Assembly (NCBI GenBank): GCA_963703345.1
Contig: OY969814.1
Span: forward strand, 2,144,001-2,208,000
Source of the DNA: an uncultured Chloroflexia bacterium
GTDB taxonomy: Bacteria; Chloroflexota; Dehalococcoidia; DSTF01; JALHUB01
Reading direction: 5' to 3'
Length of the DNA: 64,000 nt
The notes below the pieces were generated by a model, which saw only the letters and a program-made list of their open reading frames with translations, ran no database searches and was not told the origin of the DNA. Shown piece after piece: positions 20,632 through 31,548 of the stretch. The translations under genes and the position numbers were made by a program. Position 1 is the stretch's first letter. Each line of letters opens with the position of its first letter.

Positions 20632-22443
20632 ATGGAGCTAACGATACCGGCATCGCTGGACGAATCGGCGCGTCGCTCGGAGAACAAGACAGCGTTCCAG
20701 ATCAAGGCGGGACGGGAGTTCACCGGGCTGACTTACGGCGAGCTGCGCCAGCGGGCAAGGGCTTTCGCCTCCGCGCTCATCGCTCTCGGGCTGCAGCGCG
20801 GCGACCGCGTGGGAATCGTCTGCGAGAACGGACTTGAGTGGATCGTCTCCTATCTGGGGATCGCTTACGCCGGGGGCGTCGCCGTCCCGGTCTATTACGA
20901 ATTGAAGCCCGGCGAGATCGAGGAGGCGCTGCGACGCGCTGAGGTGAAGCTGGCGATCGTCTCGGAGAAGGCGCTTCCCAATATCCCGGACCGCCTGCAC
21001 GAACTGGAAACCATCCTGGTCGTCGGGCCCAGCGCCGAAGCGCGTTCCGCCGGCGGAGGCGGCCTCTTCCGACGCGCCCGCGCCCGCATCCTGCCGTTCG
21101 AAGAGGCGTTCTCGCTCACAACGCACGAGAGCGACGTGGCGCTCGCAGCGACCGTCATCAAGCCGGACGATATCGCCTCCATCGTCTACACGTCGGGGAC
21201 CACCGGCGGCGCGAAGGGCGTCATGCTCAGCCACCGCAACTTCATGTCCAACGTCGCCGCAGCCGTCAAGGCTCTGCCCGTGTCGTCGCGCGATAGCGTT
21301 CTACTCCTGCTCCCGCTCCATCACGCCTATCCCTTCACCGCCGAGTTCCTCCTGCCGCTGTCCCTTAGAGCAACGGTGACGATTGAAAATGACCTTGTGC
21401 GGGTGCGCGACCGGCTGGCGGAGGCGAAGCCCACCGTCTTTCTCGCCGTGCCCGCTCTCCTCGACATTATGAGCCGAGCCATTCGCGCTCAGGCCGACGC
21501 GCAGGGTCGCGGCAAGACCTTCGAGCGCGGCCTGGAAATCGTTCGCCGGACCAAGCAGCGCACAGGCGTCAACATCGGTCCCCTGCTCTTCCGCGAGGTG
21601 CACCAACGCCTGGGCGGCAATCTGCGTTTTTTGGCCAGCGGCGGCGCGGCGCTCAATCCGGAGACGGCGCGCGCCTTCCACCTGCTGGGCATCCCCATCC
21701 TCCAGGCCTGGGGCCTCACGGAGACGTCGCCCGTCGTCTGTGCGCAGCGCTTCTACCCGAGGCGCTTCCGCTTCACGAACTACTACGAGAAGCAGTTGGG
21801 CAGCGTGGGCCGACCCCTGCTTGGCGTTGACGTTGACCTCATCGACGTGCCGGAGAAAGGGATCTACGTGAAGCTGCACGGCGAAGGAGAGCTCATCGTC
21901 CGCGGGCCGAACGTTATGCAAGGCTACTGGAAAGCCGAGGCAGAGACGAAGGCGGCGATGATCGGCGAGTGGTTCCGCACCGGTGACATCGGCCACATCG
22001 ACCGGCAGGGCAACGTCTACATCACCGGCCGCAGCAAGTACGTCATCGTGCTGGACTCCGGCGAGAAAGTGCACCCCGACGAAGTGGAGGAGCGGCTTCA
22101 GAGCAGCCCCATCATCGAGGACGTGTGCGTGGTCAGCCGGAAGGTGCGGGACAAGACACAGGTGTGGGCCATCGTCTACCCGAACTACGCCGCCGTCACG
22201 GAACGGCTGGCGACACAGGACCACCAGATGGAGGAATCGGCTCTGCGCGCGCTCGTGGAATCGGAGGTCAACGCGCTGGAGGAAGCGCTGGCGCCCTACA
22301 AGCGCACGAACCGGCTGGTGCTCACCGACGCGCCGTTACCGAAGACGGCTCTGCGCAAGGTGTCGCGAGAGCAGATCGCGGAGGACTACTCGTTCGACGT
22401 GAAGCGCTGGCGGGAGAACGCGACGGCCGGCCTTGTGCCGTAG
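20632..22443 (+). CDS. Long-chain fatty acid-CoA ligase (AMP-binding)
   Basis: YTSGTTGGAKG, LPLHH, WGLTETSP, FRTGDIG and ITGRSK motifs. Confidence 0.9.
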   Translation: MELTIPASLDESARRSENKTAFQIKAGREFTGLTYGELRQRARAFASALIALGLQRGDRVGIVCENGLEWIVSYLGIAYAGGVAVPVYYELKPGEIEEALRRAEVKLAIVSEKALPNIPDRLHELETILVVGPSAEARSAGGGGLFRRARARILPFEEAFSLTTHESDVALAATVIKPDDIASIVYTSGTTGGAKGVMLSHRNFMSNVAAAVKALPVSSRDSVLLLLPLHHAYPFTAEFLLPLSLRATVTIENDLVRVRDRLAEAKPTVFLAVPALLDIMSRAIRAQADAQGRGKTFERGLEIVRRTKQRTGVNIGPLLFREVHQRLGGNLRFLASGGAALNPETARAFHLLGIPILQAWGLTETSPVVCAQRFYPRRFRFTNYYEKQLGSVGRPLLGVDVDLIDVPEKGIYVKLHGEGELIVRGPNVMQGYWKAEAETKAAMIGEWFRTGDIGHIDRQGNVYITGRSKYVIVLDSGEKVHPDEVEERLQSSPIIEDVCVVSRKVRDKTQVWAIVYPNYAAVTERLATQDHQMEESALRALVESEVNALEEALAPYKRTNRLVLTDAPLPKTALRKVSREQIAEDYSFDVKRWRENATAGLVP

Positions 22444-22593
22444 CGCATCGCGGAGTCTTCGGACCCGACGGTTGATACCGTCACTTATCGACCTCACAGA
22501 CGCGAATCCATAGCTGAATTCTTGATAACGCGTAAACTCGTTTTTGGTTAACGATAGGCCGCAAAAAGGCGACGATCTTCCTCGCCGCACCTA

Positions 22594-22622
22594 TTGACAA
22601 GCGCTGATGGCCGGTGTAAGGT
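22594..22622 (+). promoter_or_regulatory. Sigma-70 promoter with no downstream plus-strand CDS
   Basis: TTGACA-N17-TAAGGT, ending about 5 nt before the predicted RNA 5' end. Confidence 0.7.
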
Positions 22623-22626
22623 TATA

Positions 22627-22760
22627 GGTGCCCCAAGTGGCGGACCCGCGGTCTACCGGTGGACGAATCCGGGGAACCTGAGGCGAGGGCCCCAAACCTG
22701 AGCCGAGGAGATAACCGGAGGAGGACGAAGCCGAAACGCGGAGAGGTTACTTGGGGTATT
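22627..22760 (+). ncRNA. Candidate rod-shaped small RNA (unassigned family)
   Basis: 15-bp terminal stem GGTGCCCCAAGTGGC/GTTACTTGGGGTATT with five G-U pairs. Nested helices CCGCG/CGCGG, CGGT/GCCG, TCCGG/CCGGA, CCT/AGG, GGC/GCC and AGG/CCT. Directly follows a promoter. Confidence 0.65.
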
Positions 22761-23709
22761 GCTTTGCCCGCGCCGTCTGCCTGCCGGTAGGCATGGCCTG
22801 CTCCTCCATCCAGCCGGGCTTCAGCGTGGCGATAAACCCCAGATTGCGGTAGAGCTGACCGTAGTCCAGCCCGTAGCCGACGACGAACTCGTCCGGTATC
22901 TCGAAGCCGACGTAGTCCAGCGGCACGTCCACGAGCCTTCGCGCCCGCTTGTCGAGGAGAGTGCAGACTTTCAGCGTCGCCGGCTTACGCGCGCGCAGGT
23001 ACGTCAGCAGATGGTTCAGCGTCATACCCGTGTCGACGATATCCTCGACTAAAAGCACATCGCGCCCTTCGATGCTCTCGTCCAGGTCCTTTAAGATGCG
23101 CACGTAGCTGCTGTCGGCGCTGTCGTACGACGAGATCGCCATGAAGTCGATGGCGACGGGCAGCGAGACCTGACGCATCAGGTCGGCCATGAAGCAGGCC
23201 ACGCCCTTGAGGACCCCGATAAGCACCGGCGACTTGCCGGCGTAGTCCTTCGATATCTGGACGCCGAGCTCCTTCACCCGCCGTCGGAGCTGCGGCGCGC
23301 TCACCAGCACCCGGTGCACGCCCTCGATGTTGCGCGGTTGCGGCGGCCCAAAGCCGTACTTGGCGAGAAGGCGCAGGTAGTCGCGTTTGTTCAGCAGCTT
23401 GACGTCGATGTCTGGATGAAGCTGCCGCAGAGTGCGCAGCTTGCGGTGCTTCTCCGTCATCAGGTCCTGCCGGAGCGTCGTCAGCTCAATGTACGTGTCG
23501 ATGTCGGGCAGGTAGAAGTCGGGGGTGAAAGCCTCGAGGACCTTGTCGCCCTCGGAGCGGAGAGTGAAGGTGCGCGGCTCGTATTGCCAGGAGATGCCGT
23601 AGAAGTCGAGGATCTTGGCGAATTCCGCCTCGCTCTCGTGGGCGAAGCGGACCGCGGGAGGCGCCATCTCGGCGTTTCCCGCTGCTGTTCCCGAATTCTC
23701 CATCGACAT
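22747..23709 (-). CDS. hpt: Hypoxanthine phosphoribosyltransferase with an N-terminal PD-(D/E)xK-like domain
   Basis: C-terminal HPRT: GVLKG, VLLVEDIVDTGMTL, EFVVGYGLDY. N-terminal ~100 aa: WQYEP...FTPDFYLP...YIELTT. Confidence 0.85.
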   Translation of the reverse strand: MSMENSGTAAGNAEMAPPAVRFAHESEAEFAKILDFYGISWQYEPRTFTLRSEGDKVLEAFTPDFYLPDIDTYIELTTLRQDLMTEKHRKLRTLRQLHPDIDVKLLNKRDYLRLLAKYGFGPPQPRNIEGVHRVLVSAPQLRRRVKELGVQISKDYAGKSPVLIGVLKGVACFMADLMRQVSLPVAIDFMAISSYDSADSSYVRILKDLDESIEGRDVLLVEDIVDTGMTLNHLLTYLRARKPATLKVCTLLDKRARRLVDVPLDYVGFEIPDEFVVGYGLDYGQLYRNLGFIATLKPGWMEEQAMPTGRQTARAKQYPK

Positions 23710-23869
23710 CGTCGCAGCCCTCACTTAAACGCTACCGTGTCTGCAGGCCATGTTCAAGTGGGAAGGCGTTCGCTTGCGATGGCGAGTCTGCGCGGTGTTT
23801 CGGTTGATTCATCATCCTGTGGCTGATAGTCTTTAGGCATCGGGCGCTGAACGAGAGAGGTGGTCGGCC

Positions 23870-27750: not shown

Positions 27751-28122
27751 GGAAAACCCCTCACCGCAGCCAGACTCAGGCGGCCACGCCGCTTCGCCGG
27801 TCTCCCAATCGGCGTAATTCCCAAAGGAGCCACGGATCAATGGTTTCCTGGCGTTCCTCAGCGAGTTCCCCTGATTGAACCCGCCCCTCTGAGTGAGCGA
27901 CCATACTTCAAGCGCCCGACTATTGCTGGAAAGGAAACCGCATGGAGCTCATCGCTAGATGTGGCCAAGGGCATAACCGAAGGGCGGCTCGTCTTCGGAA
28001 AGTCACCGACTAAACCTACCGGTGAGCCGTGACCAACTCGTGACGAAGATGACCGTTAGTGTGTGCCGGAGCAGCGCGTCACCCGGGTGGAGATGCCGCT
28101 TCCCGGACAGAGGGAGAGAGCA

Positions 28123-31100
28123 ATGAGAACGAGAATCCGCCTGGTTGCCGGAAGCACGGCGATAGTCGCGCTTGCTGTCTTGTCGGGTCTCATCTTCGCA
28201 GCTCCCACCAAGAGCGGTGCAGACGATGCTGTGCAGTTCACACTCGATTCCTCCAGCTACAGCGCCGCGGTGGGGGATACGTTTGACGTCAAGGTCAACC
28301 TGGGAGTGCTAACCAACAACGTCTCGCTCTTCGCCTTCCGTCTTCCCTACGACCATGACACCCTGCAGATCATCAGCACTGTTCCGGACAATCCCGCGCC
28401 GTGTCCATCGGGGCTAAGCGATGTCGAGATACTGGACTGGGACTACAACGGCCTGGCGCTGCGCCTCCAATGCGAGAGCGTTGACGGGAGCGCCGATCCG
28501 CCTTTGACCGGGACCGCCCAACTGATAGACATCACATTCCAATGCGCCGCAGCGGGCAGCACTAGCCTTCAGATTGGCGCCCAAAACGCGATTGATGCCG
28601 ACGGCAACAACTACGGCGCGACTGCCGGGCCGGCCGCAGGCGTCGTCTGCAACGACGCCCAGTTGACCATCGTCAAGCACGTTGTGAACGATGACGGCGG
28701 CGAAGCGGACGCTTCCGACTTCACCATGAGCGTCACCGGCACTAACGTGCAGCCTTCCGACAGCTTCGCCGGCAACGAGGACGGCACCACCGTCACCCTC
28801 GACGCCGGCCCCTACTCCGTCGGTGAGACCGGCCCAAGCGGTTACAGCAGGAGCGACTCCGTGGACTGCTCGGGGACAATCGCTCTCGGTGAGTCGAAGA
28901 CCTGCACCATCACCAACAACGACGAGCCCGGCACGCTGACCGTTATCAAGCATGTCGTGAACGACGACGGCGGCGCGAAGGTCGCCGGGGACTTCAGCTT
29001 CAGCGTGAACGGTGGCGATCCGACCTTCTTCAGTCAGGACCCGGAGGACGCCAGCCTGGGTGAGAACAGCCTGACGGAGGACGCGGGCACCTACAGTGTG
29101 GTCGAGGCCGGGGTACCGATTAGCGGCTACACGACGACGTACGACAACTGCGCCGACGTCAGCATCGCCAACGGTGAGACGCAGACCTGCACCATCACCA
29201 ACGACGACACAGCTCCGACGCCCACTGGGACGCCAACAGACACGCCGACGGTGACGGATACGCCCACTGAGACGCCGACTGAGACGCCGACCGACACGCC
29301 GACGGTGACGGATACGCCCACTGAGACGCCGACTGAGACGCCGACCGACACGCCAACGGTGACGGATACGCCCACTGAGACGCCGACGGTGACGGATACG
29401 CCGACCGACACGCCGACGGTGACGGATACGCCGACTGAGACGCCGACGGTGACGGATACGCCGACTGAGACGCCGACGGTGACGGATACGCCAACCGACA
29501 CGCCGACGGTGACGGATACGCCAACCGACACGCCAACGGTGACGGATACGCCGACCGACACGCCAACGGTGACGGATACGCCGACCGACACGCCGACGGT
29601 GACAGATACGCCGACTGAGACGCCGACTGAGACGCCGACGGCGATACCAACCGTGCAGTTCGCACTCGATTCCCCCAGCTACACCGCCGACGTGGGACAT
29701 ACATTCCACGTCATCGTCAGCCTAGGAGACCTGACGAACAACGTCTCGATCTTCGACTTCCGTCTTCCCTACAACCATGGAATCTTGCAGGTCGTCGCCA
29801 CTGTTCCGGACAATCCCAACCCCTGCCCATGGTTGCTGGACGACTACGAGAGGTTGAACCGGGACTACGCCGGTGTGGGATTGCGCTTCCAATGCGACAA
29901 CTTCAGCGGGGGCGCTAATCCGGCTCAGAGCGGGACCGTCCAACTGATAGACATTACGTTCGAGTGCACCGCAGCGGGCAGCGCTAGCCTTCAGATTGGC
30001 TCCCAGTACGCGATTGATGGCGACGGCATAGACTACGGCGCGACTGCCGGGCCTGCCGCGGACGTCGTCTGCAACGAGGCCCCGGCAACCGACACGCCGA
30101 CGCCGACGGATACGCCAACTGAGACGCCGACGGATACGCCAACTGAGACGCCAACGGTGACGGATACGCCAACCGAGACGCCGACCGACACGCCAACGGT
30201 GACGGATACGCCAACTGAGACGCCGACCGACACGCCAACGGTGACGGATACGCCAACTGAGACGCCGACCGACACGCCGACGGTGACGGAGACGCCGACC
30301 GAGACGCCAACGGTGACGGATACGCCAACCGAGACGCCGACCGACACGCCAACGGTGACGGATACGCCAACCGAGACGCCGACGGTGACACCAACCGACA
30401 CGCCGACGGCGACACCAACCGACACACCGACGGTGACACCAACCGACACGCCGACGGTGACGGATACGCCGACTGAGACGCCGACCGACACGCCGACGGT
30501 GACGGAGACGCCAACCGACACGCCGACGGTGACAGATACGCCGACTGAGACGCCGACGGTGACACCAACCGACACGCCGACGGCGACACCAACCGACACA
30601 CCGACGGCGACACCAACCGACACGCCGACGGTGACACCAACCGACACGCCGACGGCGACGGATACGCCGACTGAGACGCCAACGGTGACGGATACGCCGA
30701 CCGACACGCCGACGGTGACGGATACGCCGACTGAGACGCCAACGGTGACGGATACGCCGACTGACACGCCGACGGTGACGGATACGCCAACCGAGACGCC
30801 GACCGACACGCCAACGGTGACGGATACGCCGACTGAGACGCCGACGGTGACACCAACCGACACGCCGACGGCGACACCAACCGACACACCGACGGTGACA
30901 CCAACCGACACGCCGACGGTGACGGATACGCCGACTGAGACGCCAACGGTGACGGATACGCCAACCGAGACGCCGACGGTGACACCAACCGACACGCCGA
31001 CGGCGACACCAACCGACACACCGACGGCGACGCCAACCCAGACGCCAACGGTGACGGATACACCAACCGACACGCCGACGGCGACACCAACCGACACACC

Positions 31101-31548
31101 GACGGCGACACCAACCGACACACCGACGGCGACACCAACCGACACGCCGACGGCGACGGATACGCCGACTGAGACGCCAACGGTGACGGATACGCCGACT
31201 GAGACGCCGACGGTGACGGCGACCGCGATCGCCACCGCGACAGCGACAAGCGTGTATCATCGGTCGGCGACGGCCACCAGCACTCCCCTTCCGACGGATA
31301 CGCCGGCGGCCACGGCTACGCCGACCAATGGACGCCAGCCAGCGGCGCCACAGGCACCTGTCGAGGGGCCCGGCTCCGGCCCGCCACCAAACGGAGGTGC
31401 AGCCGGCGCAGGAGTGACGGCGCCGAAGACGGGGGAAGCCGACCCCGCGACCGGTGACAGTGCTTACATAATGGTCGCGGCACTCTTGGGTGCGCTGGCC
31501 GTGGCGCTCACGCTGACCAGTCTCGCCATGCGCAAGCAGAGGTTCTAG
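28123..31548 (+). CDS. Large surface protein: two cohesin-like domains, two prealbumin-like beta-sandwiches, Thr/Pro stalks and a sorting signal
   Basis: Signal peptide; duplicated VGDTFDV...LIDITFxC domain; two L(T)[11 protein letters not shown]...CTITN modules; C-terminal TAPKTGE, TM helix and RKQRF. Confidence 0.85.
29214..29652 (+). repeat. Coding tandem repeat tract 1 ([12 protein letters not shown])
   Basis: Units such as ACGCCGACGGTGACGGATACGCCGACTGAG repeated in frame. Confidence 0.95.
30085..31220 (+). repeat. Coding tandem repeat tract 2 (TP/TD/TE/TV/TA modules)
   Basis: About 1.1 kb of the same modules plus ACGGCGACACCAACCGAC (TATPTD). Confidence 0.95.

Follow-up and report, generated by a model that had tools for sequence, protein, structure and literature searches.

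A stand-alone small RNA family of three bacterial phyla and its link to an endonuclease-I-like domain fused or adjacent to HPRT

The small RNAs described here resemble 6S RNA (SsrS, RF00013) in being abundant and stand-alone and in forming a rod whose closing stem is built from the 5' and 3' ends; 6S RNA itself binds RNA polymerase holoenzyme with the primary sigma factor, templates short product RNAs, and has a large central bubble that mimics an open promoter; the accounts of PMC9130861 and PMC8876501 define it by this bubble. The Ms1/CoRP RNAs of Actinobacteria, which bind RNA polymerase (its core in the case of Ms1), are likewise abundant, structured RNAs, and they occur in lineages that were believed to lack 6S RNA (PMC9130861, PMC11077062). 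Ms1, as outlined in PMC9130861, is ~300 nt long with a central bubble and terminal hairpins, and the present family differs from it in all three respects. According to PMC11077062, 6S RNA is unidentified in actinobacteria apart from one candidate; the RF00013 model found 6S RNA in 56 of 151 Actinomycetota genomes (44 above the cut-off, up to 101 bits; e.g., L369-L380).

One member of the family is in print. In Dehalococcoides mccartyi CBDB1, the 187-nt sRNA1 lies between tRNA-Arg and the GAF-containing hpt gene cbdbA722 (PMC12961961, 2026). It has no Rfam match, is the most abundant RNA after 16S and 23S, and was labelled a "putative 6S RNA"; its promoter was given as TTGCTG (-35) and TGGCATATT (-10). 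The authors of PMC12961961 took short antisense reads at sRNA1 for 6S product RNAs, and found more sRNA1 in cultures that they place nearer the stationary phase. The RNA is treated there in two sentences and a supplementary figure, and the parts of the paper that deal with it mention neither homologs outside D. mccartyi nor a nuclease-like domain of hpt. We compared sRNA1, as published, with the orthologous locus L233: the promoter boxes, size, and context are the same, and L233 has the closing stem of the family and scores 31 bits with our model R2. By this sequence comparison, sRNA1 is a member of the same RNA family. Compared with sRNA1, the RNA of the window (the whole stretch of 64,000 nucleotides analysed here) is shorter, ~130 nt instead of 187 nt, and its interior is different.

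Table 1. Positions of the features at the RNA locus, numbered within the window.
Feature	Position	Strand	Basis or remark
Predicted intrinsic terminator of the hpt transcript	22569..22588	-	Pattern only; upstream of the RNA's promoter
-35 box TTGACA	22594..22599	+	Sigma70-type promoter of the RNA itself; sequence and homologs
-10 box TAAGGT, TAnnnT class	22617..22622	+	Sequence; TAnnnT in 24/25 homologs
RNA, ~128-131 nt	22630..22760	+	Both ends predicted by homology to the ortholog L233
Closing stem, 5' strand, family consensus GYCCCRAGYRRY	22630..22641	+	Sole element common to all members
Order-specific core, 5' arm: helix, GGA, C, GAA, helix	22657..22672	+	Nearly invariant in 25 homologs
Apical hairpin, GGC (22682-84) : GCC (22702-04)	22675..22708	+	Holds the twin repeats; specific to the closest relatives
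Core, 3' arm: helix, GGA, G (pairs with C22664), 3-nt bulge 22724-22726, GAA, helix	22715..22733	+	
Closing stem, 3' strand, consensus RGGUYRCUYGGGRC, then U-rich tail	22746..22757	+	
Convergent gene: T7-endonuclease-I-like domain (N) fused to HPRT with intact-looking motifs	22747..23724	-	TIGR01203, 210 bits versus a cut-off of 150
HPRT (PF00156) domain	22861..23298	-	
N domain, candidate RNA partner	23341..23664	-	Profile match to 3cae

The RNA gene lies between a long-chain acyl-CoA-ligase-like gene (20632-22443, plus strand) and the convergent N-HPRT gene (Table 1). A preliminary description of this locus had the RNA driven by a TTGACA-N17-TAAGGT promoter, and both boxes are indeed present with a 17-nt spacer. 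TTGAC stands 37-39 nt upstream of the stem in all 25 homologous loci, and the -10 box is TAnnnT at the 17-nt spacing in 22 of them, TAnnnT at 18 nt in two and CATGAT in one; judged from these alignments, the promoter is conserved among homologous loci. The site was missed by a consensus promoter scan of the window, since TAAGGT agrees with the consensus at just three of six positions, and TTGACA-N16-18-TAnnnT occurs 126 times in the window's genome. Farther upstream, by eye, the family f4 loci L015, L016, L020-L022, and L030 carry TTATGC(G/C)GAA ~25-35 nt before the promoter, and L011, L013, L014, and L018 carry CTATG..AAA before the -35 box; both motifs are possible regulator sites. By homology, G22630 is the predicted first nucleotide of the window RNA, and its predicted 3' end lies at 22757-22762, within the U-rich tail. 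The minus-strand hpt frame has its stop codon (22747-22749) within the 3' strand of the closing stem. The frame has four extra codons (QYPK; 22747-22761, minus strand) inside this stem, and in 8/8 close relatives checked it ends right after AK. Elsewhere in the window, a 1161-aa open frame with long T-P-T repeats (28063-31548, plus strand) is likely to encode a surface protein.

Transcription was followed at L233, with four public RNA runs mapped to positions 1400-2900 of this locus, X21 and X24 as raw reads and X3 and X19 as contigs. X21 and X24 carry different study codes and may overlap with the data of PMC12961961. The RNA is covered on the predicted strand to a depth of up to 180,825 in X24, versus at most 55 for hpt sense, a ~3,300-fold difference. 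Of the reads, 239,441 of 15.6 million (1.5%) in X24 and 137,853 of 9.6 million (1.4%) in X21 fall on the 1.5-kb stretch, nearly all of them on the RNA. Position 1719, the G homologous to 22630 of the window, is the start of 6117 molecules in X21 (depth 9118) and lies 7 nt past the -10 box as for a primary start; the 3' ends cluster at 1898-1905. The claim of a transcribed, discrete small RNA thus holds for the ortholog, with ends that are sharp at the closing stem. X3 and X19 have no coverage of the RNA, and contig runs cannot show absence. Antisense depth over 1706-1909 is zero in X21 and ~0.2% in X24, and very short reads may escape such mapping. Back-joints from 1900 to 1719, often with extra G's, were seen in 69 reads of X24 and 26-27 of X21, far below 1% of the depth; these are either minor circles or a library artefact.

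The first reading of the window RNA had paired 22627-22641 with 22746-22760, and this helix is unbroken with five G-U pairs; the eight GGA triplets were also counted correctly. The plus strand folds at -60.1 kcal/mol, a stability that none of 200 shuffles attains (z = -3.32), and the minus strand gives z = -1.22. A BLAST search of the region against 61 related genomes gave matches in 30, and the 30 matching loci comprise 25 true homologs and five chance matches (L023, L026-L029). RNAalifold mis-paired the core on the raw alignment, so the structure was named by hand and its pairs were counted with controls. Across the 25 homologs, 95.0% of the cells are paired, versus 28-49% when the partners are slid, and 16 of the 29 pairs have changed on both sides; 0 of 500 alignment shuffles reach these values, a test inflated by the kinship of the sequences. 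In the core of the close homologs, GGA-C-GAA faces GGA-G-GRY-GAA. The C-G pair of C22664 is invariant (25/25), the 3' arm reads AGGRYGA in 25/25, and the third bulge base is U in 19/25. From these sequences, we infer a kink-turn flanked by tandem G·A pairs. The plus-strand repeats AACCTGAG(G/C)CGAGG (22675 and 22695) and ACCGG..GGACGAA (22655 and 22714) are where they were reported, but the two-fold symmetry read from them is not supported as a functional feature: CCTGAG occurs twice in just 6/25 homologs, as does GGACGAA, and distant members retain neither repeat.

The wider family is a stand-alone small RNA gene with its own promoter and a covarying rod structure. The covariance model R1 matched 26 of 151 genomes of the class and 10 of 151 of the phylum, and the distant matches share the promoter, the closing stem, and the U-rich tail around a different interior; TTGAC is present in 28 of 33, and two of the other five are at contig edges. 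A promoter-plus-stem pattern search of a species collection gave at least 120 matches. Among the matches listed, 80 are titled, comprising 51 of Chloroflexota type (mostly Dehalococcoidia), 16 Actinomycetota, eight Dormiibacterota, and five other or unnamed, and two of these 80 are chance. By sequence and predicted fold, there are family members in three bacterial phyla, Chloroflexota, Dormiibacterota, and deep-branching Actinomycetota. In 77 diverse members, many of them chosen via a pattern that covers the stem and does not force matching partners, the 12-bp closing stem has 98.9% of its cells paired and two-sided changes in 7 of 12 pairs. Members are ~70-235 nt long (71-72 nt the shortest, 234 nt the longest; median 136 nt, biased by the length limits of the search pattern), and the interior between the strands of the closing stem ranges from ~45 to ~210 nt. 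A search beside N in 20 further genomes brought up longer members, including L231-L233 (182 nt). Loose motif patterns found RGUA..GAA in 43/77, a GNRA-like apex in 65/77, and the kink-turn core in 18/77. Some genomes have two to four copies. Pairs ~3 kb apart on one contig (L119/L120, L044/L279, L050/L280, and L066/L079) were observed, and the extra copies are not beside N. At L249 (3598-3827, plus strand), a promoter-bearing rod with GGUAACC...GGGAAGACCGA, like f21 members, lies upstream of N; the closing stem is absent, and the rod is possibly a more divergent family member.

L082, L116, and L200 were chance matches and were dropped before counting; L200 was the single match on viral contigs, which were searched with one pattern and gave no real member. 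A second, looser pattern was too permissive; most of its matches were discarded, those that a model or synteny also supported were kept, and six doubtful cases (G102, G189, G199, L271, L272, and L277) were left out of scoring. The expectation that no Rfam family covers this RNA is borne out at the window, where the only matches were three to box C/D RNAs at chance level (E 0.8-2.9, 14 bits), and at the family loci sampled: 20 loci searched by gathering score gave just an unrelated T-box, 20 short loci gave no match at E ≤ 10, and neither Ms1 nor any other family matched the members. SRP RNA, hinted at by a superficial stem similarity, is encoded elsewhere in the genome (RF00169/RF01854), and neither R1 nor R2 scores it; the single tmRNA is also at another locus. 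Both had been set aside in the preliminary description. A cis-acting leader or riboswitch was rejected as well: the gene most often found downstream runs on the other strand, and the reads at the ortholog stop sharply at the stem.

The N domain of the convergent gene matches T7 endonuclease I (PF05367) by profile, with E 7.6e-6 to PDB 3cae. Its structure, predicted with confidence (pLDDT 87), gives weak Foldseek matches to PD-(D/E)XK nucleases (best E 0.0025), and those to the T7 endonuclease I structures 3cae, 2pfj, and 1m0d are also weak (E 0.005-0.015). With the catalytic residues of T7 endonuclease I taken from PMC11833611, those matching Glu20, Pro54-Asp55, and Glu65 are invariant in N, whereas Lys67 is replaced by an invariant Thr; an invariant Lys/Arg of the helix that follows might take its place. 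N is, from its sequence, an endonuclease-I-like domain that keeps the acidic triad, with a putative nuclease function. Unlike T7 endonuclease I, N is cellular and fused or adjacent to HPRT, in addition to the Lys67 replacement. It is single-copy and 48-70% identical across phyla, it stands in a housekeeping context, and PADLOC gave no match to it better than E 0.003. The window's genome has a second, plain HPRT, 42% identical (G000:C1:1950526-1951005), and so has CBDB1 (PMC12961961), which leaves the fusion free for another role. The tables of PMC12961961 list log2 values of 4.1 for sRNA1 and 2.8 for the N-containing hpt, both up, and 0.6 for the plain hpt. At L233 (1927-3510, minus strand), the protein has three domains, GAF-N-HPRT, and the same architecture is suggested for several class genomes, where the open frame at N is 473-528 aa long. 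In Actinomycetota (L306-L333), N lies in a neighbourhood that includes hpt, gcvP, and genes for a BFN-domain protein and a MerR protein.

A link of the RNA to the adjacent nuclease-like HPRT gene had been raised as one possibility, and it is supported both by co-occurrence with N and by shared loci. Among the 61 genomes of the order sample, the RNA is found in 40 and N in 42, and the two agree in 59 (40 with both, 39 when the unpublished G045 is left out, and 19 with neither); one of the two genomes with N only has a completeness of 71%, and its N lies at the edge of a contig. Both are absent from family f2 (14/14), from genera g16 and g17, and from three of four g35 genomes (g35 by BLASTN alone). 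In the Actinomycetota sample (151 genomes), the RNA is found in 34 and N in 75, and all 34 RNA-positive genomes have N; without unpublished genomes it is 31 of 31, and the 17 genomes with 6S RNA are unaffected. There, none of 30 N loci examined has the RNA inside ~1.5 kb, so the genes are unlinked, and hpt lies within ~1.5 kb of N in 22 of 33 loci, a closer association than that between N and the RNA. The RNA was not found in 41 of the 75 N-positive Actinomycetota genomes, in a search that scores 21 candidates per genome and misses known members. In the Chloroflexota sample (151 genomes), N is found in 40 and accompanies 21 of the 24 scored RNA-positive genomes; the other three (G092, G107, and G073) carry a weak-scoring, promoter-bearing RNA, and no N was found in them by protein search or by a profile search without positive control. 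At eight of 20 Chloroflexota N loci (L237-240, L246-248, and L250), no RNA was found beside N, L249 being an uncertain case, and two of these eight genomes carry the RNA elsewhere. Of 174 loci, which are redundant and include 40 with flanks under 300 nt, 67 have HPRT and 58 have N no more than 1.5-2 kb away from the RNA. RNA and HPRT are tail to tail in most of the 67, with N alone at L063 and a tandem arrangement at L070, and RNA and N are head to head in another family (L241, L243, L244, and L245). The presence of the RNA follows that of N in near-strict co-occurrence, also where the genes are unlinked; genomes are phylogenetically non-independent, so no p-value weight is placed on these tables.

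Our main reading, to which we give a probability of roughly 45%, is that the RNA is a decoy, present in large excess, and possibly a substrate of N, bound via the closing stem. N would bind the RNA directly through this stem, which alone keeps its sequence from phylum to phylum, and the irregular, purine-rich rod would mimic the distorted or branched duplex that such enzymes recognise. The great excess of the RNA suggests that it would act as a decoy of a scarce nuclease-fold domain, keeping the low-abundance nuclease occupied or being cut by it, and the fused HPRT, with GAF in some members, could couple the RNA-N system to purine/PRPP status. The broader picture, an ancient and vertically inherited RNA-protein system of Chloroflexota, Dormiibacterota, and deep Actinomycetota in which an RNA that ranks among the cell's most abundant mimics nucleic acid for a domesticated Holliday-junction-resolvase-like domain wired to purine/PRPP through HPRT and GAF, we hold more tentatively, at somewhat below even odds. 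Several points count against the main reading: the RNA and N could both be ancestral and simply carried along, with losses in the same clades, one deletion removes both where they are adjacent, the three RNA-positive Chloroflexota genomes above have no detected N, the 41 N-positive Actinomycetota above have no detected RNA, N keeps closer to hpt than to the RNA, and the product-RNA-like antisense reads reported at sRNA1 (PMC12961961) are unaccounted for. In the proteome data of that paper, the GAF-N-HPRT fusion is represented in one of six proteomes by one peptide, which makes a stoichiometric 1:1 particle unlikely and leaves the abundance of the RNA only partly explained. The same excess of RNA over N, and the co-occurrence, would also be accounted for if N were merely a dedicated maturation or decay enzyme of the RNA and the real target another abundant machine, e.g., the ribosome or another RNA-binding protein; the interiors of the 77 members are rich in motifs of protein-binding type, by loose patterns. 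We regard this as improbable: the interior is conserved across phyla neither in length nor in sequence, no L7Ae-family kink-turn binder was found in the window's genome, and the 5' end of the ortholog, 7 nt past its -10 box, fits a primary start that needs no 5' processing. A role as cis-antisense regulator of the convergent hpt transcript is very unlikely. Its basis is the tail-to-tail overlap at the window, where the predicted hpt terminator lies past the RNA gene and the hpt 3' UTR would run antisense across it, together with the X24 read-through on the RNA strand, whose depth over the 3' part of hpt is 130-510 versus at most 55 for hpt sense. However, many lineages have the RNA in a head-to-head or unlinked position, and such a role does not require a strong structure, a conserved stem, or a 3,300-fold excess. 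A CsrA/RsmA sponge, put forward for the GGA triplets, scarcely deserves any weight although CsrA is encoded in the window's genome, since the window RNA has zero ANGGA (0-2 per homolog) and the GGAs lie in internal loops opposite GAA instead of in hairpin loops and are not family-wide.

Binding of RNA polymerase, with the RNA as a strongly diverged 6S or an Ms1/CoRP-like RNA, is doubtful but a serious alternative; N would then be incidental or just turning the RNA over. The rod with its 5'/3' closing stem and apical stem is compatible with this, and 76 of 84 members fold as a single hairpin at minimum free energy. sRNA1 has the rank (third most abundant RNA), the 187-nt length, the short antisense reads, and the stationary-phase rise to suit it (PMC12961961), and the very high abundance typical of 6S RNA is seen at the ortholog. 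RF00013 was found in 35 of 151 phylum genomes and in 0 of 17 of the class, with none in the window's own genome and 6S RNA in just one of the 24 RNA-positive Chloroflexota genomes; it also gave no match around the locus or in five class genomes at E ≤ 10, nor at 20 family loci. Truncated 6S RNAs work in vitro provided that the bubble is retained (PMC8876501), but there is no central bubble in the predicted folds of the 84 members, whose longest unpaired run has a median of 6 nt and is 89% purine (a 7-nt apical loop in the window RNA and 6 nt in L233). In 10 true 6S RNAs of the same phylum, the predicted median is 15 nt; unpaired runs of at least 10 nt occur in 8/84 members versus 8/10 true 6S RNAs, and a G-free run of at least 12 in the 5' half in 4/84 versus 10/10. 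Unlike those 6S RNAs, the family has neither the UGAGCC/GGUUCA and GGG/CCCACC helices nor an open central bubble, and R2 scores none of the 10. The lengths (71-234 nt, ~130 nt in the window) depart from the ~160-200 nt of 6S RNA, and members of 71-72 nt exist. Seventeen of the 34 RNA-positive Actinomycetota genomes have 6S RNA on another contig, 15 above the Rfam cut-off, where ~13 would be expected if the two were independent, although a second 6S paralog, as in Bacillus, would be compatible with coexistence; relatives without the RNA are also without 6S RNA (0/5). The compact 6S-like RNA of the preliminary description is therefore not upheld, given the missing bubble, the ~71-nt members, the lack of cross-matches, and the separate 6S gene. 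These comparative data argue against a 6S identity of the family.

The RNA had also been called undescribed, which stands for the family, absent from Rfam and not found in print, and falls for the Dehalococcoides member (sRNA1, PMC12961961, 2026). In the literature searched, neither the family nor an RNA partner of N is described, and an unnamed listing in the PMC11109978 supplement or in a 2014 6S survey is possible. The screen of PMC11109978 yielded a Dehalococcoides motif, and this region may be among its entries; the main text of that paper and of PMC8632094 has no hpt-linked motif. New here are the family, its phylum range, the conserved stem, the failure of the 6S tests, and the link to N, with one member in print as 6S. 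Percent-level bacterial RNAs that span several phyla are few and well known, and this family has no Rfam entry, while the only mention found in print gives a member the 6S label, in contradiction to the comparative data. The presence of any 6S RNA in Dehalococcoidia is thereby again in question. If the broader picture is true, the family would join 6S, SRP, tmRNA, RNase P, and Y RNA as a new class among the abundant bacterial RNAs. The family comes with a named candidate partner, the uncharacterised and highly conserved endonuclease-I-like domain, and with a small putative binding site, the 12-bp stem. The cultured host, Dehalococcoides, is relevant to bioremediation. Either outcome would teach something: one is a new system of an RNA and a nuclease, the other an inhibitor of RNA polymerase without a bubble, which would widen the definition of 6S RNA.

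Two known systems may work in a similar way. In the case of bacterial Y RNA and Ro60, a conserved 5'/3' stem binds the protein and the remainder of the RNA is variable; the RNA is multi-copy in some genomes, and its gene is often beside that of the partner. The present family shares the conserved end stem, the variable rest, the several copies, and the adjacent partner gene, and by analogy it might work like Y RNA. It differs in that the candidate partner is endonuclease-I-like instead of a TROVE protein and appears far scarcer than the RNA, and in having no Rfam match. In type III toxin-antitoxin systems, an abundant RNA is paired with a scarce nuclease-fold protein, and a similar pairing is conceivable here. 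Unlike these systems, the family has no repeat array, and N is a single-copy domain in a housekeeping context.
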